A stretch of DNA of 44,514 bases from a virus. The translations under genes and the position numbers were made by a program. Positions 8,549 to 34,022 of the stretch are shown here, in pieces; the stretch's first letter is position 1, and every line of letters starts with the position of its first letter. The stretch lies in the UHGV virus genome UHGV-1355725; one strand, 5' to 3'. Under the pieces are notes generated by a model. The model was not told the DNA's origin, searched no databases, and was given only the letters and a program-made list of their open reading frames with translations.

Positions 8549-8655
8549 TCTTTAATCCTTTGGTTAAGAGGTTACAGGTTAAGGTTAATGCGCCAGACGG
8601 GAACCACCCGCTTTTCGTGTGCGACACTAGGCGCAAACTTATTCTAGCACACTAC

Positions 8656-8687
8656 TTGCGCACCCCAATATAATAGGGTACTATTCA
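8656..8687 (+). promoter_or_regulatory. class-1 promoter with embedded inverted-repeat operator
   Basis: TTGCGC (8656-8661), 17-bp spacer, TACTAT (8679-8684); inverted repeat AATAG-GGTA-CTATT at 8672-8685; followed by RBS AAGGAG and ATG 8715. Confidence 0.5.
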
Positions 8688-8944: not shown

Positions 8945-10084
8945 ATGGCCCAGAAGAAAATAACCGACGAACAGTTACAGGAAGAATTGAACGCCGGGAT
9001 GAAGAATGTAGACATCGCCCGTAAATACGGCATCTCAGACCGCGTTATTCGTATCCGTAAAGCAAAACTAGCTAAGAAAGGCGTAGGTCATGGGCGTGAC
9101 GTTAGTCACCTTGTGCCAGATGGCTACAAGATTAAGGGCACGTCGTCACTTGTGGACGAGTTCGGCAACACTAAGTTGCAATGGGTTAAGACCGACACCG
9201 ACGCCGAACGTCAGGTTGAATTGATGAAAGCCGTAGTTGAAGGCATGAAGTCAGAGATTACGCCGGTTGCGCCTGTTAAAGCGACTCGCGCCAAACGCAA
9301 CGATAAACTACTCAATCTTTACACGGTATCTGATTTTCATCTCGGTATGCTGGCATGGGCCGACGAGAGCGGCGACGACTGGGATATGAAGATTGCGGAA
9401 GACCTGTTCTCCCGTTGGTTTGATGCTGCATTTCAGAAAGCGCCTGATGCGGGAACAGGAGTTATTAACCTGCTTGGAGACTTCGCGCACTTCGATAGTC
9501 TTGATGCCGTTACCCCTGAGTCGCGTCATGTGTTAGACGCCGATACTCGCTATCAGAAACTAGTTCGCTACATGATTCGTATGGTGCGTCGTGTTGTTGA
9601 TATGGCGCTTGTTAAACATCACACAGTCAAACTCTTAATAGTTCAAGGTAACCACGACCCTGTAGGCTCTGTATGGCTCGCCGAAATGTTCTGTACATTG
9701 TACGATAACGAACCTCGCGTATTTGTGGACACCTCCCCCGACGTATACAAGATGGTCCAGCACGGGAAAACTACGCTATTCATGCATCACGGACACCGTG
9801 CGAGATTCGACGCCATAGAGTCAGTAATGATTTCTAAATTCCGTAAGGCTTTTGGAGAAAGCACATACAGCTACGCTCATGTAGGGCATCTACATCATCA
9901 GAAATTAGTAGAAAGCCGCAATATGGTAGTCGAACAACACCGAACCCTGGCCGCGAAAGATGCTTACGCATCGCGAGGGGGCTGGATGTCCGGTCGTAGT
10001 GCTAACGTGATAACTTATAGCGCCGAATATGGGGAGGTGGCGCGCCTCACAATATCACCTGAAATGATAGGAGGTATAAATTGA
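8945..10084 (+). CDS. HTH domain fused to calcineurin-like metallophosphoesterase
   Basis: 379 aa; N-terminal HTH-like segment (VDIARKYGISDRVIRIRKAK); C-terminal metallophosphoesterase motifs DFHLG, GDFAHFD, GNHD, HHGH, GHLHH; RBS GAGGAAG before ATG 8945. Confidence 0.6.
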   Translation: MAQKKITDEQLQEELNAGMKNVDIARKYGISDRVIRIRKAKLAKKGVGHGRDVSHLVPDGYKIKGTSSLVDEFGNTKLQWVKTDTDAERQVELMKAVVEGMKSEITPVAPVKATRAKRNDKLLNLYTVSDFHLGMLAWADESGDDWDMKIAEDLFSRWFDAAFQKAPDAGTGVINLLGDFAHFDSLDAVTPESRHVLDADTRYQKLVRYMIRMVRRVVDMALVKHHTVKLLIVQGNHDPVGSVWLAEMFCTLYDNEPRVFVDTSPDVYKMVQHGKTTLFMHHGHRARFDAIESVMISKFRKAFGESTYSYAHVGHLHHQKLVESRNMVVEQHRTLAAKDAYASRGGWMSGRSANVITYSAEYGEVARLTISPEMIGGIN

Positions 10085-10554
10085 CATGGAATGACGTTTA
10101 CGAATACGAAAACGGGAATCTTTACGCTAAGAGCAGCGTAAACCCTAAGTACCCGAAAGGACGTAAAGTAGGGTACGTTGACCACCGCGGATATGTAAGA
10201 ACTAAACTAGGATCAAAAATGACATTCGCCCACAGAATTATATGGGAAATGTTTAACGGAGCTATACCAGAAGGCAAGGAGATTGACCATATAAACGGTG
10301 TGAAAAGCGATAACCGTATAGAGAATCTTCGACTGTGCGACCGGCACATAAACTGCAAAAATGCAGCAAAGCGCAGGGATAACTCGTCTGGTGTTACCGG
10401 GGTTAGTAAAACATACAACGGTAAATGGGTCGTTCAAATTCAATATAACGGGAATAGAATAGCCAAGCGTTTCGACCAAAAAGAAGACGCCGTAAGATAT
10501 GCAGAATGTTTTTACAAAGAAAAGAAAGACTTTACTGAGAGGCACGGAAAATGA
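10081..10554 (+). CDS. HNH homing endonuclease (HNH plus AP2-like DNA-binding domain)
   Basis: Motifs HRIIWEMFNG...IDHINGVKSDNRIENLRL (HNH) and GVTGVSKTYNGKWVVQIQYNG...F (AP2-like); TTG start overlapping the upstream stop (TTGA), RBS AGGAGG. Confidence 0.8.
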   Translation: MTWNDVYEYENGNLYAKSSVNPKYPKGRKVGYVDHRGYVRTKLGSKMTFAHRIIWEMFNGAIPEGKEIDHINGVKSDNRIENLRLCDRHINCKNAAKRRDNSSGVTGVSKTYNGKWVVQIQYNGNRIAKRFDQKEDAVRYAECFYKEKKDFTERHGK

Positions 10555-16089: not shown

Positions 16090-16791
16090 TTATTTCCTCA
16101 GGGCTTTAAGTTGCCGTTCAAATTCGGCAGGGTTCGATTTATACAGGGCTAAACGCTCTGCTTCACTCATGTCTTTAAACGCTGGTGCGGCCCCGCCGCC
16201 TTTGCTACCGGAAGCCCCGCCGCCGGAAGCTGCATTTGCTTTAATCAAATGCGAAAACGCTTTGTGTTCACGCAGATATTTACGGAACTGTTCCGGGTCA
16301 GTCGTGATTACGTTTCCGTCTGCGCCAACAAACTTAGTAACCACATCGTCACCTTCGAACTCAGTCTTAACGAACGGCGCAAGGATGTCCACTGCTTCCG
16401 GGGTAATAAAGTCACCTGCGAAAGAGCCTAACACCGCTTTACGTTCGCTGCCGAGGATGCGCTCCGCCATTCTGGAGATGCGACCGTCTTTCTCGGCTAA
16501 CACCGGGTCATACTGGCTACGAATCGTCTTTTCGAACTCGTCCATCTTACCTGCGGCTTTTAACGCCTCCTGGTGTGCGCGCTGCCGTTCTTCTTCGGCC
16601 TCTTTTGCTTTGCGAGCGGCTTCTTTCTTCTCCGCCAGCAATGCTTCCTGATTGGCCTTAAGCCCGGCAACTTCTTTCTCAATCAGCGCCTGAACTTCTT
16701 CAGCGGTGAACATTTTCGGCGCATCACCACCACCGGCTTTATCTTCTGCCCCAGCTTCTTCCTGGAACGGATAACGTAAAAAACGATTCAT
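16090..16791 (-). CDS. scaffolding protein
   Basis: Ala/Glu/Lys-rich helical ORF (EKKEAARKAKEAEEERQRAHQEALKAAGK) directly upstream of the capsid gene; start at 16791 is uncertain. Confidence 0.55.
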   Translation of the reverse strand: MNRFLRYPFQEEAGAEDKAGGGDAPKMFTAEEVQALIEKEVAGLKANQEALLAEKKEAARKAKEAEEERQRAHQEALKAAGKMDEFEKTIRSQYDPVLAEKDGRISRMAERILGSERKAVLGSFAGDFITPEAVDILAPFVKTEFEGDDVVTKFVGADGNVITTDPEQFRKYLREHKAFSHLIKANAASGGGASGSKGGGAAPAFKDMSEAERLALYKSNPAEFERQLKALRK

Positions 16792-16873
16792 AGTCAGTAT
16801 GTCCCCTGGACGTTGGAATCCGGGCCACCCGGATTTACATGTCAAGAATAAATTATTCCAACATGCAAGGCAA

Positions 16874-17137
16874 CTATTCCAGAATATTCCTCACGTAATC
16901 CTGCAACATGAACACTTTCAGTCTCAGTTGCCGTACACATTCAGCGTTCTGAACGTCGATAGCTAAATCCTCATCCGCGTTGCTACTTGGCGGGGCCAGT
17001 TTGCACGGCGGCTGCATCATCGTCATATCCGGGGATGGAATTGGCGTTGGCGACTGCGCTGGACTTGAGCTGCACGCGCTCAGGGTCAAAAGTGCACACG
17101 CTGCGACCAGGCGTTTTAATGTACTTAACGACTTCAC
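16874..17137 (-). CDS. o-spanin (Rz1-like outer-membrane lipoprotein)
   Basis: GTG start with RBS AGAGGTGA; signal peptide with lipobox LSAC; Pro-rich mature part (CSSSPAQSPTPIPSP...); begins inside the i-spanin gene in another frame and extends past it. Confidence 0.55.
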   Translation of the reverse strand: MKSLSTLKRLVAACALLTLSACSSSPAQSPTPIPSPDMTMMQPPCKLAPPSSNADEDLAIDVQNAECVRQLRLKVFMLQDYVRNILE

Positions 17138-17369
17138 GGGTAATCACCTCTGATTTCGTCTTGCCTTCGTTGTCAGCGGCGGCGGCCTTCGATTCATCCT
17201 GCTGCTGCCGTTGTGTTTTCTTCGCTAACTCAGCCTGTGCTTTCTGCTGTTGCTGCGAAACGAGATTCGCCCGGCCTTCGTTCCAGCCGCTGCGATACTG
17301 GTAGACGCCGTGTGCGTAAGCCAGGATGATGAAACATGCCGCCGCTACGACAGTTGCTTTAAGATTCAT
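16983..17369 (-). CDS. i-spanin (Rz-like)
   Basis: 128 aa; N-terminal TM anchor (MNLKATVVAAACFIILAY), Gln/Ala-rich coiled coil; RBS AAGGAG; overlapping lipoprotein gene in alternative frame. Confidence 0.55.
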   Translation of the reverse strand: MNLKATVVAAACFIILAYAHGVYQYRSGWNEGRANLVSQQQQKAQAELAKKTQRQQQDESKAAAADNEGKTKSEVITREVVKYIKTPGRSVCTFDPERVQLKSSAVANANSIPGYDDDAAAVQTGPAK

Positions 17370-17620
17370 GTTTCTCCTTTCTCGATAAGTAAAGCCCCGC
17401 CATAAAGCGGGGCGCTAGTCCTTATCATTTAAACATAGAAACGGCGTAATCTCAGTAAACCCGTTACTTTTTACACAAGCAATAGAGTATGGCCCTTCCG
17501 AACGCGTCAGCGTAACTACACTCAGGACTTACGTCCCGCTCCGTTACCTGCCCGCGCCGCGGTCGCTTGTTCATGCTTCACAAGCTCAGGTGGAGCTTAG
17601 CATATTTTCAGTGAAAAGTC

Positions 17621-17636
17621 AACTATTCGAATAGTT
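17621..17636. repeat. 16-bp perfect palindrome AACTATTCGAATAGTT
   Basis: Exact self-complementary 16-mer in the non-coding region upstream of the spanin genes; contains CTATT/AATAG half-sites in inverted order relative to the operator motif. Confidence 0.9.
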
Positions 17637-17688
17637 TATTCCAACATTTACAATTCATAAGAATAACTGGAATAGGTAAATAAATAGT

Positions 17689-17720
17689 TTGCAGACACCA
17701 ATATAATAGGGTACTATTCA
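17689..17720 (+). promoter_or_regulatory. class-1 promoter with embedded inverted-repeat operator
   Basis: TTGCAG (17689-17694), 17-bp spacer, TACTAT (17712-17717); inverted repeat AATAG-GGTA-CTATT 17705-17718; RBS AGGAGG and ATG 17745 follow. Confidence 0.5.
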
Positions 17721-17744
17721 GTTAACTTAAACAGGAGGCGATAT

Positions 17745-17975
17745 ATGGGTACATACACACATTCTATAAACTGGAAAGGCAGACGTGGTTTGGCGGTTCT
17801 CGAAGGGGGTGTTTCAGGCCCCCACGCGTTTGGGTGGTGGCTAGTGCCATCGTATTCAAACAAACATGGCGGGCAGGACTACGACTGGAATAACGCCGTT
17901 CCTACTAGATTCAAAACAAAGAAAGCCGCGTTGGATGCACGTAAAGAGTTAAGAAAAGGAGGATTATTTTTATAG
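17745..17975 (+). CDS. hypothetical protein (single-gene insertion)
   Basis: 76-aa ORF with own promoter and terminator, on the opposite strand to the flanking late genes. Confidence 0.5.
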   Translation: MGTYTHSINWKGRRGLAVLEGGVSGPHAFGWWLVPSYSNKHGGQDYDWNNAVPTRFKTKKAALDARKELRKGGLFL

Positions 17976-17980
17976 TAAAA

Positions 17981-18008
17981 CTAAGGCCCCATTATGGGGC
18001 CTTTTATC
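17981..18008. terminator. bidirectional rho-independent terminator
   Basis: Hairpin AGGCCCC-attat-GGGGCCT (17984-18002) followed by TTTT; lies between convergent stops. Confidence 0.6.
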
Positions 18009-18468
18009 ATTCTGGCTTAGTGACCTTCGCCGCTTTGCTTACCACCTCTACACCATCGGCATCGGTAACTTTAACGAAGTATTCACCCGCCGCGTTAACC
18101 GTCAGAGACAAAGCCTCTTCCGGGGCGTTGACTACTTCCTTACCGTCTTTGTACCAGGTCAGCACATATGGCGCTTTGCCCGCCTTAACTTCAACAGTGA
18201 TAGTTGCGCTGCCGTCTGCTGGTTCGACGTCTTTCGGTTGCACCGAGAAGTACACGTCACCCGCGTCCGCCAGATACGGAATCTCATAAAGCATACCCGC
18301 CGCCGGGAGCGCAATACCGGTTTTATCCGCAAACGGCATATCGTCTACCGGTGTACCTAGTACACTTTCATCTTCGATAAATACCACATTCTCGCTAGAG
18401 CCAGACACGCGGGCGTACTGGACTACGCGACGAGAAGGTACATCAGTTACTTTGAAAAAGCCCATCAT
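18007..18468 (-). CDS. Ig-like domain structural protein
   Basis: 153 aa; C-terminal Ig-like segment (ATITVEVKAGKAPYVLTWYKDGKEV...GEYFVKVTDADG); coupled to the head morphogenesis gene. Confidence 0.45.
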   Translation of the reverse strand: MMGFFKVTDVPSRRVVQYARVSGSSENVVFIEDESVLGTPVDDMPFADKTGIALPAAGMLYEIPYLADAGDVYFSVQPKDVEPADGSATITVEVKAGKAPYVLTWYKDGKEVVNAPEEALSLTVNAAGEYFVKVTDADGVEVVSKAAKVTKPE

Positions 18469-20405
18469 TATTCCCCTTTCAGATAATCAGCAACACGTCT
18501 ATCGAGTTCCGCCATCTGCTTAAGCGTGAGCGGATTCCCGAAACCATCTACAGATATTACGCGAAACTCTTCCGGCGATATACCGCTGTTGCGGAAAATC
18601 TTACCCCGCACCGGGCCTAACGCCTGGTCCTGAAACCATGCAGGTTGTTGTTTAAGGAACTCGTAATAAGTGGTGTCCGCACTTACCTGAGTTCCGCCAT
18701 CTGCACCCTTAGCCGCGCGTTTTGCGCCTTTATCCAGGAAGTCGAACTCTGAACTGATTACAGGTGCCGTGGTACTTCGGCAGCCAAAATGGGCTGGGGG
18801 CATTGGCCCTTTACCAATCTCCCACGTCATTCCGTCTCTGGCCCTGCAATTCTTGACTATCGCACTACCTGCTGTATAATATCCTTGACTACTAGAGAGG
18901 GTATAAACATGGCACGTTCTAAACTCGACGCTTATGCGGATGATATTTGTTCTTTGTACCGAGATGGCACTCCCGCCAGCATCATAGCCAAGAATTACGG
19001 CGTCACTACCACCACGGTAACAACATTTCTCAAGAAGCTCGGACTCATGCATGATCGACCCCGTGGTTGGGTTTCTAACGACACCATTTTGAATCAAAAA
19101 AGGGCTATAGAATTGTTCGAGTCCGGCGTCCCGCCTATTGAGTGCATAAGAAGGACCCAAGTCAGCAAAACAGTTTTCTATTCTATGGTCAAAACACTTG
19201 GCCTCGCTAAGCGCGGGCACACTCACAGGACATTCACCCCGGAGGAGAAAATCGCCAGAGCTATCGTCCGACAGCAAAGCGGCGCTATGAATAAGACTGA
19301 AACCATCGCTTTTGAATTGTTTAATTCCGCTGGCGTGGACGTAGTTCCGCAGTTTGCAATCGGCCCGTACAATGTCGATTTTGCCATTGAGTCCCACTCC
19401 ATCGCCATAGAAATCTGTTGCCGCGGGACTCGTGCTTACCATTTTCCTGATGGGGAAATCAGCGAGCGTATTAAAAATATAATCCGCTCTGGCTGGCATG
19501 TTTATGTTCTTCACTGTTTCGAGCACAGTCACTTTGTCAACAGTGGTATACAAGACATGCTTAGTTGGATCGAGTTCATCAAGCGGAGTCCATCCGTATT
19601 GCGTGAGTACAGGGTGTTTCGGGGTGCCACTGAACTTCTCGCCGTTGGAAAGTTCGATGGTAAAGATTTTTCCTGAATAGAGTCCGCGCATTACCGCGTC
19701 CATCCCCGCGATGGGCGCTAATTCTGTTTCAGCCGTGAAACACGTTGTACTGGTACGGCTGTCCAATGTTGATACCCACTCATATTTCTCGATGATGTCG
19801 TCGTTCTGGCGGTACGTCTCGTTACGTGCTTCATTGGACACGTGAGACAGCGCGGTGCGGATTACAGTAGCCGCGTTACGTTCAGAGATGTCAGCCAGTC
19901 CGCCAGCGCCTACAACACTTTTAACAATCTGCCGCGTAGTTTGGCCTTGTACGAAGCCCATCTTAACGCCAGTTACCAGGCGCGCGACTTCTGTTTCACC
20001 CCAACCTGACATCAGCTTGGTGAAGTCAACAGGCTTGTCGCTCAGTGAGAGCGGCTGAAACTCGGCGGCGGCCCACACCTGTTCTGCGGTAGGTGTAACA
20101 AATTCCGCGTTAACGTTGGCGGTCAGTGTCTTTACGTTCCACTCAGCCTCATACTTCGCCAATTCCTTAAGGTCTTCTGTCAGCTTTGTTTGCCAGTCAC
20201 CTGTAAGCCAGGTTAGCGCTTCTTCAAGGTTGAGTAACAGTTTATTCAGTCGCGCAGTGCTCCGCCCGTCGTCGCCGAATAACAGCACCTGCCGTTTGAT
20301 TTCGTCCCGCATTTCCTGAATGAACGGTGCAAGGTCTTTCACTTCTCCGGAAGCGGTTCGTTGCAGCCATATCTGGTGGCTGATTAAGGATGTAAGTAAG
20401 CTCAT
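18468..20405 (-). CDS. head morphogenesis protein (SPP1 gp7 / Mu F-like) interrupted by an intein
   Basis: ATG 20405 with RBS AGGAGG; F-like motifs WVSTLDSRTSTT (before the intein) and GKGPMPPAHFGCRS (after); 298-aa insertion with intein signatures between them; located just after the portal gene. Confidence 0.7.
   Translation of the reverse strand: MSLLTSLISHQIWLQRTASGEVKDLAPFIQEMRDEIKRQVLLFGDDGRSTARLNKLLLNLEEALTWLTGDWQTKLTEDLKELAKYEAEWNVKTLTANVNAEFVTPTAEQVWAAAEFQPLSLSDKPVDFTKLMSGWGETEVARLVTGVKMGFVQGQTTRQIVKSVVGAGGLADISERNAATVIRTALSHVSNEARNETYRQNDDIIEKYEWVSTLDSRTSTTCFTAETELAPIAGMDAVMRGLYSGKIFTIELSNGEKFSGTPKHPVLTQYGWTPLDELDPTKHVLYTTVDKVTVLETVKNINMPARADYIFNTLADFPIRKMVSTSPAATDFYGDGVGLNGKIDIVRADCKLRNYVHASGIKQFKSDGFSLIHSAALLSDDSSGDFLLRGECPVSVPALSEAKCFDHRIENCFADLGPSYALNRRDAGLEQFYSPFLIQNGVVRNPTTGSIMHESELLEKCCYRGGSDAVILGYDAGGSAISVQRTNIIRISVEFRTCHVYTLSSSQGYYTAGSAIVKNCRARDGMTWEIGKGPMPPAHFGCRSTTAPVISSEFDFLDKGAKRAAKGADGGTQVSADTTYYEFLKQQPAWFQDQALGPVRGKIFRNSGISPEEFRVISVDGFGNPLTLKQMAELDRRVADYLKGE
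18853..18880 (+). promoter_or_regulatory. near-consensus sigma70-type promoter inside the intein, antisense to the head morphogenesis gene
   Basis: TTGACT (18853-18858), 16-bp spacer, TATAAT (18875-18880); RBS GAGAGGG and ATG 18909 follow. Confidence 0.5.
18909..19676 (+). CDS. nested antisense gene: HTH domains plus DUF559/Vsr-like (PD-(D/E)xK-type) endonuclease domain, candidate homing endonuclease
   Basis: 255 aa from ATG 18909; two HTH-like segments (IIAKNYGVTTTTVTTFLKKLGL; IECIRRTQVSKTVFYSMVKTLGL); C-terminal YNVDFAIESHSIAIEI...RSGWHVYVL resembling Vsr/DUF559 endonucleases; lies entirely within the intein on the opposite strand. Confidence 0.55.
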   Translation: MARSKLDAYADDICSLYRDGTPASIIAKNYGVTTTTVTTFLKKLGLMHDRPRGWVSNDTILNQKRAIELFESGVPPIECIRRTQVSKTVFYSMVKTLGLAKRGHTHRTFTPEEKIARAIVRQQSGAMNKTETIAFELFNSAGVDVVPQFAIGPYNVDFAIESHSIAIEICCRGTRAYHFPDGEISERIKNIIRSGWHVYVLHCFEHSHFVNSGIQDMLSWIEFIKRSPSVLREYRVFRGATELLAVGKFDGKDFS

Positions 20406-20448
20406 AGGCCCTCCTGTAGTATCGACAGTGTAACGCATAAAAATAATA

Positions 20449-20481
20449 TTTGCAGACACCAATATAATAGGGTACTATTCA
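20449..20481 (+). promoter_or_regulatory. class-1 promoter with embedded inverted-repeat operator
   Basis: TTGCAG (20449-20454), 17-bp spacer, TACTAT (20473-20478); inverted repeat AATAG-GGTA-CTATT 20466-20479; 40-nt block identical to the copy at 17689. Confidence 0.5.
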
Positions 20482-20506
20482 GTTAACTTAAACAGGGGGG
20501 TTAAAA

Positions 20507-20791
20507 ATGACACACAAATTTAAAGGTACAGACGGCGCATGGGTTAATCACGGAACAGCTATCTGGGCGGGGGACGTTTATGTGGCCGAGGTAATGAGTA
20601 TGCGGGAAAAGGACTCCGTAAAATTAGCTAACGCAAAACTTATCACCTCGGCACCCGAGTTACTTGAAGCACTTCGCCAGCTTCGCGATTACGTCGAGGA
20701 TGTTTGTGCAGTATCTTCTGATGATTGCCATGAAGACCATCCATTAAATCGGGCCAACAGAGCAATCAAGAAAGCATTAGGAAAGAAATAA
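20507..20791 (+). CDS. hypothetical protein (single-gene insertion)
   Basis: 94-aa ORF between the head morphogenesis and portal genes on the opposite strand; own promoter and terminator. Confidence 0.5.
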   Translation: MTHKFKGTDGAWVNHGTAIWAGDVYVAEVMSMREKDSVKLANAKLITSAPELLEALRQLRDYVEDVCAVSSDDCHEDHPLNRANRAIKKALGKK

Positions 20792-24321: not shown

Positions 24322-24504
24322 TCATTTGAAGAACCACAAAAGGATGCCTGCGATACCTGAGATATACAGCCCGCCAACAATCATCCATAATTGAAGCCTA
24401 GGCAGTTGCTTCACTACGGGCCAACTTGATATAAGCGCCCATGCGAACGCCATAATAAATACATTATATCCAAAACGCCTAAGAAACTCTAAAACCTCAA
24501 TCAT
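24322..24504 (-). CDS. small membrane protein
   Basis: 60 aa with two hydrophobic segments. Confidence 0.4.
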   Translation of the reverse strand: MIEVLEFLRRFGYNVFIMAFAWALISSWPVVKQLPRLQLWMIVGGLYISGIAGILLWFFK

Positions 24505-24761
24505 TCCCTACTCTCCCCTTTAGCAATGCGTTGCTCTGTTTTAGTGATACCACGGCGTGTGAATAACACCGGGCTTGTCTTAACGTGCGTCATGAGACGA
24601 TTGTTATAAATTACATGGCGCTCGCAATCAACGTCTTTGCTGTACTTCGCAATGGTCATTTCGTTGATGCCTGTTTGTCTGCACGTCTCCGCCATCGTGC
24701 CAAATTCTTTAATCAGGTTCGGAATGCTGGTAATCATCCTAAGAAATTCCTCGTTGTCCAC
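24501..24761 (-). CDS. hypothetical protein with HTH-like segment
   Basis: 86-aa ORF; segment TMAETCRQTGINEMTIAKYS resembles an HTH; candidate regulator, inference only. Confidence 0.35.
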   Translation of the reverse strand: MDNEEFLRMITSIPNLIKEFGTMAETCRQTGINEMTIAKYSKDVDCERHVIYNNRLMTHVKTSPVLFTRRGITKTEQRIAKGESRE

Positions 24762-25222: not shown

Positions 25223-25411
25223 TTAGGCATTGGTGTCACCCTTGTTCAGGTTGAAGCGGTTAATCAGTTCACGGCGGCGTTCCATAAGGACGTCTACTAA
25301 TTGCGCGTGGTGTTTAATCCTGGCATCGAGGACCGCTAATTCTCTTAATGCCTCGTTTGTTTTGCCGTTAACGGCCTCTACCATCATCTTTTCGTATTCA
25401 CGGTCAGTCAT
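25223..25411 (-). CDS. hypothetical protein
   Basis: 62-aa ORF, helical/charged. Confidence 0.4.
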   Translation of the reverse strand: MTDREYEKMMVEAVNGKTNEALRELAVLDARIKHHAQLVDVLMERRRELINRFNLNKGDTNA

Positions 25412-25572
25412 TCTTTACGCTCTCCCCACATGCGATTGAGGTACTTGTTCTTGTCCGGCCCCGGGAAACTGTTACGTTTCATCAGCTCCTCGCGTGTTGG
25501 GAACGGGGTGTTACTGACTTTACGGCCTACTCGTAATGGTTGGCTTACTTGACCTTGTTCGCTCATTTCTTA

Positions 25573-25776
25573 TCACCTGTAATATGTTGCTTCTAATGAT
25601 TCTAGTACCGGCGCGCTGTACCCGTGGTCGCATTCGCAATCCCAAGAGTCATCGGAGCAGTTATAAGCTTTAAGTTGCCCGTACTCCCATTTAAGAGTTG
25701 CCGAATATGGAGCATCTCCTACAAACCACACCGCTACAAATTGTCCTTCTGACGGCATTTCATAACTAACCTTCAT
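25573..25776 (-). CDS. hypothetical Cys-containing protein
   Basis: 67-aa ORF, ATG 25776 with RBS GGAGAG; CxC motif CSDDSWDCECDH. Confidence 0.4.
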   Translation of the reverse strand: MKVSYEMPSEGQFVAVWFVGDAPYSATLKWEYGQLKAYNCSDDSWDCECDHGYSAPVLESLEATYYR

Positions 25777-25955
25777 TTCTTCTCTCCTGCATAAGCTGCT
25801 TTAAGTGTCTGCATAGCGGCGAACCAGAACGCGTCCGCCGGGATATTGCTGCTCAGGTTACTAACGGCAATGCGTGCCATCAGTTGTGCGTCTTTGAATG
25901 CTTCGATGTCTGTGATTTTCATCTTCTCTACTCCGTTCTCGTTGTCGATGGAGTA

Positions 25956-25984
25956 AATATAGTAGGGTCATAGATAATAGTCAA
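25956..25984 (-). promoter_or_regulatory. sigma70-type promoter (minus strand)
   Basis: On the minus strand TTGACT, 17-bp spacer, TATATT; the spacer carries a degenerate copy of the class-1 core (TAGGGTCATAG). Confidence 0.35.
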
Positions 25985-26003
25985 CTAGTCATTACCGAAA
26001 ATA

Positions 26004-28018: not shown

Positions 28019-28440
28019 CGCCTACCGTTGGGGTAATAATATTCCCAATCGTGCTCGCACTCGCTGGATTTAGTCACGCCGCAATTAACACATACGGCAG
28101 GAGCCTTACCATTAACGAATTGCCAGTTATGGTAGCATTCCCGCGCGTCTTCCTTACGGCAACCGGATTGCTCCTGTTCGCGTATAAGTTTGTACGCCTC
28201 TACGTCACCGGTAGCGGTAGCCAACGCCATATGCAACTCCTTAACTTGCCATGTCAGGTGCGATATGTGCTCAGATTTCTTAATGTTGTCTTTCTGCAAC
28301 TCCTTAATCTGCGCCGAAGCGTCACGTAACTGATTCTTAAGTGACTGCACCTCATGCGCCAGGTCTTCACACTGGTTGTTATTTACCTGCTGCCGTAACT
28401 GGTCAATCAGGTATTCGAATACTTCGTTTTTGTTACTCAT
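27988..28440 (-). CDS. coiled-coil protein with C-terminal zinc ribbon
   Basis: 150 aa; Gln/Leu-rich helix then CxxC...CxxC (CVNCG...CAKCG). Confidence 0.45.
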   Translation of the reverse strand: MSNKNEVFEYLIDQLRQQVNNNQCEDLAHEVQSLKNQLRDASAQIKELQKDNIKKSEHISHLTWQVKELHMALATATGDVEAYKLIREQEQSGCRKEDARECYHNWQFVNGKAPAVCVNCGVTKSSECEHDWEYYYPNGRRCAKCGLVNL

Positions 28441-28784: not shown

Positions 28785-29087
28785 GTAAATTTTATTGGTG
28801 TTTTAAAGATAGTCGTTCACCGCGAATCCAGTAGTACCTCGGGCGTCGCGCCCACTGACGCCAGCGCATAACACGGTACTTGTTGCCGTCTGACGCAACA
28901 ACAAGCCCAAATCGCTTTTCCCCGTTCCTACTGGTCCAGGTTACGATGTCATTCAGTTTCATTGTTGCGTCCCCTGCAATAGTCGCTTCGATTGTTGCGT
29001 TTGGTGAAATAGAATAAAAATGAGAAAAATGATACGCTGCTGTGTAGCAGCGTAAGTCACAAAGCCAAATAGTAACCTATTGACCTG

Positions 29088-29633: not shown

Positions 29634-29825
29634 TTAGCCCTCCAGAATTACATATTCACGTCTACGCACGTACAGTTCCTCACCACAATGTTCGACTGTG
29701 CATCCGTAATCGTTACTGGACGTAGCCTCGAACTCATACCCAACGGATACCCCAAAGTAACGCAGTGGGTGGTCGCCATAACCAGGCGGAAGAACATAAT
29801 CGACATCAGTTATACGAATTTTCAT
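29634..29825 (-). CDS. hypothetical protein
   Basis: 63-aa ORF. Confidence 0.35.
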   Translation of the reverse strand: MKIRITDVDYVLPPGYGDHPLRYFGVSVGYEFEATSSNDYGCTVEHCGEELYVRRREYVILEG

Positions 29826-30264: not shown

Positions 30265-30306
30265 GAGAATAGTTACGTTGCCGTTGTGATTCTTTCGTTT
30301 CTTAAA

Positions 30307-30362
30307 AGAGTACGCAACGCAGTGGGTGGGCGTCAGCCCACCCCAGCGGAGTGAAGTACTCT
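30307..30362. repeat. nested inverted repeat / structured element in the early intergenic region
   Basis: Outer arms AGAGTAC (30307-30313) and GTACTCT (30356-30362) enclose the hairpin GGGTGGGC-gtca-GCCCACCC (30324-30343). Confidence 0.6.
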
Positions 30363-30639
30363 CTACCTTGCCCACGGCAACTATAGAAACTTTTAATTAT
30401 CAGGTACTTAAGAGATATGCCGCCGGTGTGAATAGAGCTTGCCCAGGGCAACCGGAGATACTAAGGAAGGAAAGTTACGATAATTCATTTGTTCAGTAAT
30501 CTGCCGCTTAACACTTCGCTTGCGCTGGTGCGCCGCTGCGTTTCAAGCGGGTATTACAAGGTGAACAGGAATCAAAGTAACTAAGATATATAAGCACCTT
30601 AAACGAAGATTTTCATAATGTCAATAGGTACGATTATGT

Positions 30640-30668
30640 TTGATTTCCCATTATTCGCAATGTATACT
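30640..30668 (+). promoter_or_regulatory. sigma70-type promoter for the rightward early operon
   Basis: TTGATT (30640-30645), 17-bp spacer, TATACT (30663-30668); ATG 30701 follows. Confidence 0.45.
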
Positions 30669-30700
30669 CAGTTTCGTTAACTGATAATGAGGGTTTGAGA

Positions 30701-30853
30701 ATGGTTACTTTGACAGAAGAGCGGTTGAAAGAGTTGCTGGTAGAAGCGTGGTTTAACGGACATAACGAGCGCAGATACTGCCCCAATAAATACGGCACAG
30801 CTACAGCGTTTGCGCGGGAAACAATTAAGGAGATTAAAGATGACACAGAATGA
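30701..30853 (+). CDS. small hypothetical protein
   Basis: 50-aa ORF with RBS GAGGG; first ORF of the rightward operon. Confidence 0.35.
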   Translation: MVTLTEERLKELLVEAWFNGHNERRYCPNKYGTATAFARETIKEIKDDTE

Positions 30854-31010
30854 AGTAGCTGAGCGTATCGGGGTTACTCGCCGCACGCTGAATAACTGGT
30901 TAAAGAGTGGGAAGTTCCCGGATTGTTGTATTCGCATTATGGGCCGTCGGCAGCCAGGTACGTTTGACCCGGAGAAAGTGGAAGCGTGGATTAAGGAGAA
31001 TGTAAAATGA
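30840..31010 (+). CDS. small HTH DNA-binding protein
   Basis: 56 aa, MTQNEVAERIGVTRRTLNNWLKSGKFP HTH-like. Confidence 0.45.
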   Translation: MTQNEVAERIGVTRRTLNNWLKSGKFPDCCIRIMGRRQPGTFDPEKVEAWIKENVK

Positions 31011-33704: not shown

Positions 33705-33723
33705 AAGGGGCGTTAAGCCCCTT
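33705..33723. terminator. hairpin terminator between convergent genes
   Basis: GGGGC-gttaa-GCCCC with T-run on the minus strand; overlaps the stop codon of the XRE gene. Confidence 0.4.
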
Positions 33724-33928
33724 CACCGAACGCCAGCCACTTGGCGTCTACTTGCAGCACTTTAGCCAGTTTAAACAGCGTAGCCGGGCGGACGTCCTGA
33801 GTTACACCGAGTGCCAGCTGGTTAATCGCGCCCTGGGAAACGCCGGTCAGCACCGCCAGACGGCGCTGAGAGAGGCCGAGTTCTTTACGGCGTTGTTCTA
33901 CGCGGATGCCTAGTTCAGATGGTTGCAT
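33713..33928 (-). CDS. XRE-family (Cro/C1-type) HTH transcriptional regulator
   Basis: 71 aa; LGLSQRRLAVLTGVSQGAINQLALG HTH; RBS AAGGAG; divergent from the rightward operon with operator-bearing promoters in the intergenic region. Confidence 0.8.
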   Translation of the reverse strand: MQPSELGIRVEQRRKELGLSQRRLAVLTGVSQGAINQLALGVTQDVRPATLFKLAKVLQVDAKWLAFGEGA

Positions 33929-33956: not shown

Positions 33957-33990
33957 TGAATAGTACCATATTAATTATTTTAGAAAAGCC
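33957..33990 (-). promoter_or_regulatory. class-1-like promoter/operator for the regulator gene
   Basis: Minus strand TACTAT (rc of 33960-33965) with imperfect repeat AATAG-TACC-ATATT (33959-33972); weak -35 (CTTTTC). Confidence 0.4.
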
Positions 33991-33992
33991 CA

Positions 33993-34022
33993 TTGACAAC
34001 ATGAATAGTTAGCTATTATAGT
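33993..34022 (+). promoter_or_regulatory. class-2 promoter with embedded inverted-repeat operator
   Basis: TTGACA (33993-33998), 18-bp spacer, TATAGT (34017-34022); inverted repeat AATAG-TTAG-CTATT 34004-34017. Confidence 0.55.

Follow-up and report, generated by a model that had tools for sequence, protein, structure and literature searches.

The window analysed here is the whole 44,514-nucleotide stretch from UHGV virus genome UHGV-1355725, in which two sites sharing AT-rich words, at 16846-16889 and 17613-17674, lie at control regions of late genes. The 3 kb around both sites found matches in 483 phage records, mostly from Kagunavirus and Jerseyvirus (Guernseyvirinae), and the window is that of a Kagunavirus-like siphophage with its late genes on the minus strand. 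As judged from annotated relatives, the late order on this strand is terminase, portal, head morphogenesis protein and Hoc-like protein (18468..18007), followed by a two-way terminator, a small plus-strand open reading frame (ORF) and a 375-bp non-coding stretch, and then by the i-spanin gene, an overlapping o-spanin ORF, the scaffold gene (16791..16090) and the major capsid gene. The upper site lies inside the 375-bp stretch upstream of the i-spanin gene (16983..17369, minus), and the lower one 60-90 bp upstream of the scaffold ATG (16791), so that the first-pass annotation, made from the sequence alone, had correctly placed both at late-gene control regions. Each site is probably the control region of a host-type late promoter, here called P_A (spanin) and P_B (scaffold), with an array of GAATA/TATTC pentamers at each and one copy of an operator at P_A. 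Kagunaviruses and Jerseyviruses are widely used in therapy and biocontrol while their gene regulation is essentially undescribed, and the literature on promoters of Jerseyvirus and Guernseyvirinae yielded in-silico predictions only. What results is a testable map of both late promoters, together with the pentamer arrays, a spanin leader RNA and an operator family that extends over the whole genome and has a likely partner in an XRE-family protein. The features at the locus are as follows.

17594..17622, minus strand: promoter P_A, with -35 TTGACT (17622..17617), a 17-bp spacer, TGc (17602..17600) and -10 TAAGCT (17599..17594)
17613..17628, minus strand: operator-like site GAATAG-TTGA-CTTTTC, centred on the P_A -35 and including one half of the palindrome
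17621..17636, unstranded: palindrome AACTATTCGAATAGTT, at -51 to -34 of P_A; the two T that end it on the minus strand open the -35
17629..17647, unstranded: 19-mer GAATAGTTTATTCCAACAT, at -62 to -42 of P_A, composed of GAATA-N3-TATTC at 17629-17641 and the 12-mer at 17636-17647
17624..17674, unstranded: pentamer array A, on the minus-strand reading TATTC at -85, TATTC at -76, GAATA at -52, TATTC at -44 and GAATA at -39 relative to the P_A start
17370..17587, minus strand: structured leader RNA of ~215 nt, from P_A to the i-spanin start codon, with seven helices (RNAalifold)
17394..17413, minus strand: GC-rich hairpin (leader helix 7), ~25 nt upstream of the i-spanin ATG, terminator-like in this phage
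16983..17369, minus strand: i-spanin (Rz-like) gene, with a weak DUF2514 match
16874..17137, minus strand: o-spanin (Rz1-like) ORF, out of frame with Rz and partly embedded in it
16871..16879, minus strand: 9-mer GAATAGTTG, the last codon and stop of o-spanin (GAA TAG) plus TTG of the P_B -35, with a twin at 17620-17628
16846..16889, unstranded: pentamer array B, with members at about -49, -46, -39, -18 and -10 relative to the P_B start
16845..16873, minus strand: promoter P_B, with -35 TTGCCT (16873..16868), a 17-bp spacer and -10 TATTCT (16850..16845); predicted start near 16838
16846..16864, unstranded: second copy of the 19-mer, GAATAAATTATTCCAACAT, which on the minus strand fills the P_B spacer and overlaps TATTC of the -10 TATTCT
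16817..16835, minus strand: 5' hairpin of the P_B transcript, starting 3-5 nt after the predicted start

The words reported by the first-pass annotation were all recovered in place, namely the palindrome AACTATTCGAATAGTT (CTATTC then GAATAG) at 17621-17636, the 12-mer TTATTCCAACAT at both 17636-17647 and 16853-16864, and the 9-mer CAACTATTC at both 17620-17628 and 16871-16879, where the lower copy overlaps the last codon and stop of o-spanin (GAA TAG, 16879..16874). Taken singly, the palindrome and the 12-mer repeat are at chance level. Perfect palindromes of at least 16 bp are expected 0.78 times per window and are present in 56% of dinucleotide shuffles, and such shuffles give an expectation of ~3 exact 12-mer pairs within 1 kb per window, with 13 such places observed. 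More than chance would give is seen in the imperfect extension of both repeats beyond the exact words: the 12-mer repeat (D2) to 17/19 matches (16846-16864 versus 17629-17647), and the 9-mer repeat to 12/13 matches (16867-16879 versus 17616-17628). An exact GAATA-N3-TATTC occurs at only two places in the window, one in each 19-mer. Perfect palindromes of at least 12 bp are under-represented in the window as a whole (6 observed versus ~12 in shuffles), and a second one, GTATTCGAATAC at 28411-28422, lies within coding sequence (E-V-F-E-Y) and is probably due to chance.

For comparison, 58 related loci were collected via the scaffold protein, and the region around P_A was aligned in 42 distinct copies, 31 of Kagunavirus type and 11 of Jerseyvirus type. 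The upper site has the minus-strand sequence ...TGTAAATGTTGGAATAAACTATTCGAATAG-TTGACT-tttcactgaaaatatgc-TAAGCT, and transcription is predicted to start near 17587. The -35 TTGACT agrees with TTGACA at 5/6 positions and is TAGACT or TTGACT in the Jerseyvirus type, whose version of the promoter reads TAGACT-17-TGtTACGCT. The hexamers and the 17-bp spacing are thus kept in both types, whose regions otherwise resemble each other only loosely, while the spacer sequence is entirely different between them. The TG is invariant in the 42 copies and is followed by C, A, G or T; because the TG is fixed while the next base and the spacer sequence vary, P_A bears the signature of an extended -10 promoter. 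The likeness to the extended -10 (TGn) sigma-70 promoters of E. coli and its phages extends to the -35 (5/6), the 17-bp spacer and the TG before a weak -10 (TAAGCT), as well as to the conservation of spacer length with variation of its sequence across lineages. P_A differs from them in that the non-consensus GCT of its -10 is conserved, possibly because the first helix of the transcript begins nearby, and in having a start placed by prediction. A promoter on the plus strand that would use the palindrome was also considered, and no acceptable pair of hexamers was seen on inspection. In the Kagunavirus fBC-Eco01, the P_A sequence is listed as a predicted host promoter, HP1 (PMC9825357, Table S2); the leader RNA, the P_B motifs and the pentamer arrays go unmentioned in that paper.

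On the minus strand, the sequence of the lower site is GGAATATTCTGGAATAG-TTGCCT-tgcatgttggaataatt-TATTCT, and after it come the hairpin, the ribosome-binding site and the scaffold ATG. P_B scores 8/12 to the consensus, below the threshold of a simple scan. Nevertheless, TTGCNT-17-TATTCT/TATATT is found at the same place in relatives down to 56% scaffold identity, with unrelated spacers, and wherever a P_B-like promoter could be read, its hexamers and spacing proved to be conserved: in the Kagunavirus and Jerseyvirus types, the St162-like phages, the loci L050 and L057 (both TTGCAT-17-TATTCT) and L058 (TTGCAT-17-TATATT). Nearly all 58 loci, even those without a spanin gene upstream, have the 9-mer GAATAGTTG at -88 to -90 of the scaffold ATG. 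Readings of P_B as a sigma-54 or a sigma-E promoter were set aside, as the spacing, judged by eye, appears to be wrong for either.

The first-pass annotation had related the half-sites of the palindrome to those of an operator, a relation that is upheld below. The repeated words overlap the cores of two sigma-70-type promoters. In both promoters the shared 9-mer joins GAATAG to TTG, the start of the -35 hexamer, whereas the register of the 12-mer differs, at -62..-51 in P_A versus the -35/-10 spacer in P_B. The word TAGTTG(A/C)CT is common to P_A, P_B and a third late-strand promoter, P_L (at 25984).

25956..25990, minus strand: promoter P_L, GACTAG-TTGACT-17-TATATT, right after a strong terminator

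P_L has a 10/12 operator-like match across its -35. At its place, relatives carry TAATAGTTGACTAGTA (SE2) and TAATAGTTGCAT (St162), and the SE2 site matches the Jerseyvirus-type consensus TAATAG-N4-CTATTA at 11/12 positions. P_A and P_B would, as we read them, both be served by the host RNA polymerase and restart late transcription after a terminator, P_A driving the ~215-nt leader and the two spanin genes, and P_B driving the scaffold and major capsid genes behind the 5' hairpin.

Use of these sites by a host regulator such as RcsB has one argument in its favour, in that the plus strand at 16879-16892, CCAGAATATTCCTC, matches the RcsAB box consensus TaAGaatatTCcta (PMC4325325) at 11/14 positions, including 4/5 key bases, and is centred near -47 of P_B. 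However, we estimate that ~3-4 such matches are expected per genome, the mismatches include the first of the five most conserved bases, and the match, which lies in the coding end of o-spanin, is absent from St162-like phages, although these keep P_B. Scans with the consensus sequences of IHF, CRP, ArgR and Fis also found nothing on either site. Their single match was IHF-like, one mismatch away from the consensus, and is located at 17679, in the interval that separates P_A from the divergent plus-strand promoter. Control by a host regulator is therefore regarded as extremely unlikely.

The first-pass annotation had proposed the palindrome and the repeated words as possible binding sites for a late-gene activator, or for the operator's own regulator in a different geometry. 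If the palindrome were a dedicated site for a symmetric dimer, whether activator or repressor, the lower site would be a weaker second site for the same protein. The perfect dyad at -51..-34 of P_A is in a position typical for activators, it is intact in 26 of the 31 distinct Kagunavirus-type copies, and its half-sites match a promoter-enriched motif (ACTATTC, 14 occurrences versus 5.2 expected). Against this stand the chance expectation given above and the pattern of change among relatives. The homologous Jerseyvirus region, GGAATACTTTATTCAAAAAGTAGACT, retains the promoter, GGAATA-N3-TATTC and the upstream TATTCCAGTTATTCC, but has the asymmetric CTTTATTCAAAAAGTA in place of the palindrome, whose second half is lost. 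The same half is lost in L016, the most divergent Kagunavirus-type copy (AACTATTCTAATGGTT). Four variant loci (L016, L020, L022 and L044) carry single, one-sided substitutions that are never mirrored in the other arm, and the palindrome is no better conserved than neighbouring bases. The lower site, moreover, has a single half-site and no palindrome. Since the symmetry is absent from the Jerseyvirus type and L016, changes one side at a time and earns no extra conservation, the perfect 16-bp dyad is probably an incidental, lineage-specific by-product and not a functional unit, and we consider a dedicated dimer site unlikely.

GGAATA-N3-TATTC persists in the Jerseyvirus type as GGAATACTTTATTC, and the conserved core of the 12-mer is GGAATA, the left arm of the GAATA-N3-TATTC inverted repeat. 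In the second copy of the 19-mer, at P_B, TGGAATAATTTATTCT is common to the St162-like, Kagunavirus and Jerseyvirus lineages, which differ in the six bases immediately upstream.

The operator to which the first-pass annotation alluded does exist. The window has 9 exact copies of AATAG-N4-CTATT, versus ~1 expected, and all except that at 29068 lie on recognisable promoters. Matches of at least 11/12 to GAATAG-N4-CTATTC number 8 in the window, versus 0.04 expected; seven of these are on early or moron promoters (8671, 17704, 20465, 28754, 30234, 34003 and 36555), and the eighth is GAATAG-TTGA-CTTTTC at 17613-17628. Further operator-like sites with 10/12 matches are at 25975, 29067, 33958 and 41180. 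The family overlaps core promoters, the site at P_A lying on the -35 and other members on the -10 or the spacer. The palindrome itself does not have the geometry of the family, as its half-sites are in swapped order with a spacing of 0, but no different geometry need be invoked for one of its halves, which forms part of the normally spaced site (11/12) across the P_A -35. The palindrome would then be the abutment of this N4 operator with the upstream GAATA-N3-TATTC repeat. Given that the operator covers the -35, its occupation is predicted to repress P_A, and the protein most likely to do so would be a 71-residue XRE-family protein.

This protein (33713..33928, minus; HTH_3, E 5.6e-13) is encoded between two operator copies, which lie 45 bp from each other (33958-34018), one on each promoter of a divergent pair. 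Such a layout is that of an autoregulated Cro/CI-like switch, here in a phage group regarded as strictly virulent. Its identity to the counterparts in relatives is 93% in Bas74, 49% in SE2 and 38% in St162, while operators number about ten in the first of these phages, are fewer and altered in the second and are absent from the third. Because operator abundance falls along with XRE identity, the XRE protein is a candidate for the operator-binding protein, on evidence that is weak but consistent. The HTH_17 protein encoded at 30840-31010 and the NinH-like protein encoded at 24501..24761 are further candidate binders.

Phage P1 provides an example of control through dispersed operators, which are bound by its C1 protein. 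The present system resembles P1 C1 and the Cro/CI repressor-operator systems in that a short inverted repeat overlaps many promoter cores, and in the position of the XRE gene between two copies. It differs from them in belonging to a phage group regarded as virulent and lacking an integrase, and in that binding here is predicted. In addition, the half-sites of the palindrome stand back to back with zero spacing and would be unusable by a rigid dimer that requires N4.

A motif of the same family has been described in fBC-Eco01, where PHIRE found seven copies of a 'phage promoter', tgAATAGTa-ccTATTat-T, which were ascribed to a phage RNA polymerase (PMC9825357). It corresponds to the promoters with operators in this window (TTGCAC-N17-TACTATTC). 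The records of relatives contain no gene annotated as an RNA polymerase, the window's own genes not having been screened for one. Such 'phage RNA polymerase promoters', the naming of which is an annotation habit that the present analysis would correct, are more likely host-type promoters with an operator.

The two late promoters also have in common a high density of GAATA/TATTC pentamers. The two sites are the two densest clusters in the window, each with 5 pentamers in 60 bp; in 198 of 200 shuffles the maximum did not exceed 3. When relatives were scanned, as the first-pass annotation had proposed, the clusters proved to be conserved and far beyond chance, being the top two at the same places in the complete genomes of Bas74 (5 and 5) and SE2 (5 and 4), where the next best window has 2. 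Pentamers 1-4 of array A are conserved in the Jerseyvirus type and L016, and the fifth, which is the right half of the palindrome, is not. In array B, the three proximal pentamers are also found in St162. As St162 keeps the P_B array and has no operators, the arrays are separate from the operators. As we interpret them, the pentamers would be contacted by a DNA-binding protein controlling when, or how strongly, late genes are expressed, and binding of a regulator at the two sites is plausible.

Which protein this might be is suggested by the P_B array being kept in each of Bas74, SE2 and St162, all of which have the NinH-like protein encoded at 24501..24761, the sole small DNA-binding protein among those checked to be found in all three phages. 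This makes the NinH-like protein a lead as pentamer binder, not evidence for one. Phage regulators that act at or near the -35 of late promoters include phi29 p4, Mu C/Mor and lambda CII. The present weak late promoters, with repeated motifs from about -85 to -35, resemble the targets of these proteins, as does the occurrence of the same motif family on early promoters, where binding would block RNA polymerase; the resemblance is functional only. The present arrangement is distinguished by the difference in motif arrangement between P_A and P_B. No homologue of these regulators came to light, no search aimed at them having been made.

It could be argued that there are no regulator sites at all, and that the shared words merely reflect two related AT-rich promoters, alike through ancestry, partial duplication or gene conversion between P_A and P_B, and conserved only because promoters and leader are. 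The single features are, as shown, at chance level, the order of the shared blocks differs from one site to the other, and the exact 12-mer is confined to the Kagunavirus type, the Jerseyvirus type having ATTCAGGAATAC at P_A and AGTAAGTGGAATAA at P_B, as fits local homogenisation. Such an origin does not account for the conservation of pentamers at positions where sigma-70 promoters vary freely, for instance in the P_B spacer (TGGAATAATT) and at -85 to -44 of P_A, or for the clusters ranking as the top two genome-wide in three genomes. We therefore regard the absence of any regulator site as improbable.

Several observations nevertheless weigh against two regulated host-type promoters as the explanation. 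Both P_A and P_B are sub-consensus and were missed by a simple promoter scan. The Kagunavirus-type intergenic region is 94-98% identical throughout (181 phages), so that conservation within this type singles out no motif. The published transcriptome of a relative, phage vB_Eco_K1B4, gives gene-level timing without 5'-end resolution. Neither the Jerseyvirus type nor L016 retains the operator-like site at P_A, and a regulator believed to turn off early genes would not be expected to have an operator over a late -35. Lastly, the spacings of the pentamers are 8 and 5 at P_A versus 3 and 7 at P_B, and the P_A repeat in L016 has N4 in place of N3, so that no single binding geometry is apparent.

The motifs might instead mark the recombination ends of a block made up of P_A, the leader and Rz/Rz1. 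This block is bracketed by a perfect 9-bp inverted repeat, I6, CTATTCCAG (16874-16882) and CTGGAATAG (17667-17675). Its conserved part starts exactly at TATTCCAG, whether a moron promoter or a terminator adjoins it upstream, and St162-like phages do not have it next to P_B. However, by our estimate ~1.8 such 9-bp pairs are expected per 1-kb region, neither a recombinase nor a duplicated target site is evident, and GGAATAGTTGCC is found upstream of P_B even where no spanin block adjoins. A role of the motifs as module junctions is thus considered very unlikely, and the reading of the two sites as promoter control regions is retained.

The architecture described so far is mostly that of a fairly ordinary phage promoter and operator system, and its most interesting by-product is the structured leader of the spanin transcript. 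Among 36 distinct sequences of the leader, 98.3% of cells in the predicted helices are paired, versus 35-52% with slid partners, and compensatory changes are seen at 10 pairs, versus 0-4 with slid partners. The z-score of the minimum free energy is -2.96, and only on the minus strand are the many G-U pairs accommodated. At its 5' end, the leader pairs with part of the spanin ribosome-binding site and with the bases immediately preceding this site, and at two of these pairs both sides change between the Kagunavirus and Jerseyvirus lineages. The leader was found only in phages of the Kagunavirus and Jerseyvirus types: its covariance model gave no match in St162 or in 15 distant loci, and in searches of 16500-18300 and 17350-17660 no Rfam 15 family came near its gathering score. 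St162 (L063) has a different, hairpin-rich leader of ~300 nt upstream of its spanins, at 25290-25782, behind a TGTATAAT promoter.

The stem of helix 7, the GC-rich hairpin that resembles a terminator, covaries (CG/GC/UA), and its tail has 5 U in 8 in this phage and ~3 in 8 in the Jerseyvirus type. Because bases after this hairpin pair with the 5' end of the leader, the functional RNA would read through it. An independent small RNA ending at 17413..17394 is less likely than a leader, given the poor U-tract in the Jerseyvirus type and the covarying pairing beyond the hairpin. The 36-residue ORF at 17574..17464 (minus), annotated as a hypothetical protein in relatives (e.g. Bas74_0007), is probably not a gene, and calling a 36-37-residue 'hypothetical protein' within the leader is a further habit of annotation to be corrected; it has single-base indels in L010, L016, L020, L026 and L044 and no ATG in L016 or the Jerseyvirus type.

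The leader appears to be a cis-acting element of the spanin mRNA that may affect translation or stability, as its predicted structure suggests. With its 5' end paired beside and partly within the spanin ribosome-binding site, the modelled fold is comparable to that of leaders that mask such sites, although it matches no Rfam family. If a hitherto unrecognised late-gene regulator of Guernseyvirinae phages, such as the small NinH-like (Fis-like) protein, which is encoded downstream of the first late promoter, were to bind the pentamers and activate the weak spanin and head promoters, while the leader masked the spanin ribosome-binding site, the last step of lysis would be timed in two layers; this combined scheme is unlikely.

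The P_B transcript is likewise predicted to begin with structure. Next to its 5' hairpin, a small hairpin, GUCC-AGG-GGAC (16798-16808, minus), holds the scaffold ribosome-binding site, and the two-hairpin fold is the same in four lineages with different stem bases (AUCCGGG, CACCGGG, GCCGGG and GACGGG). The ompA 5' hairpin is an example of a 5' stem-loop that stabilises an mRNA, and the P_B transcript, with a predicted start 3-5 nt before a covarying hairpin, would be similar in form.

In the spanin genes themselves, the o-spanin ORF may start at the GTG at 17137, which would give it a signal peptide ending in a lipobox-like LSAC. In relatives, its last 47-48 codons are annotated, without a signal peptide, and these are probably truncated annotations.

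Two further features in the neighbourhood are the following.

17983..18003, unstranded: two-way terminator, closing both the plus-strand cassette and the upstream minus-strand head genes
17689..17975, plus strand: divergent cassette, with promoter TTGCAG-17-TACTAT (17689-17717), operator TAATAGGGTACTATTC (17704-17719) and a 76-residue ORF (17745-17975)

The product of the 76-residue ORF has no Pfam match, and in relatives its slot holds other cargo (a sliding clamp or a RusA-like resolvase) or is empty. An identical 48-nt promoter-plus-leader is found on the plus strand at 17688-17735 and 20449-20496, before the unrelated small ORFs 17745-17975 and 20507-20791, both of which run antisense to the late operon. 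Another antisense insertion, at 8945-10554 (plus), comprises metallophosphatase-like and HNH endonuclease genes inside the tail block, behind an operator-bearing promoter (8650-8686). The head morphogenesis protein (18468-20462, minus) is 664 residues long, versus 347 in Bas74; according to the annotation of a close relative, fEg-Eco06, an intein is inserted in this protein, and the intein is also present in this phage. Between the leftward and rightward early promoters, ~400 bp at 30280-30690 are non-coding and may be an origin or another RNA, and a 14-nt word, AACGCAGTGGGTGG, is repeated at 29759 and 30316.

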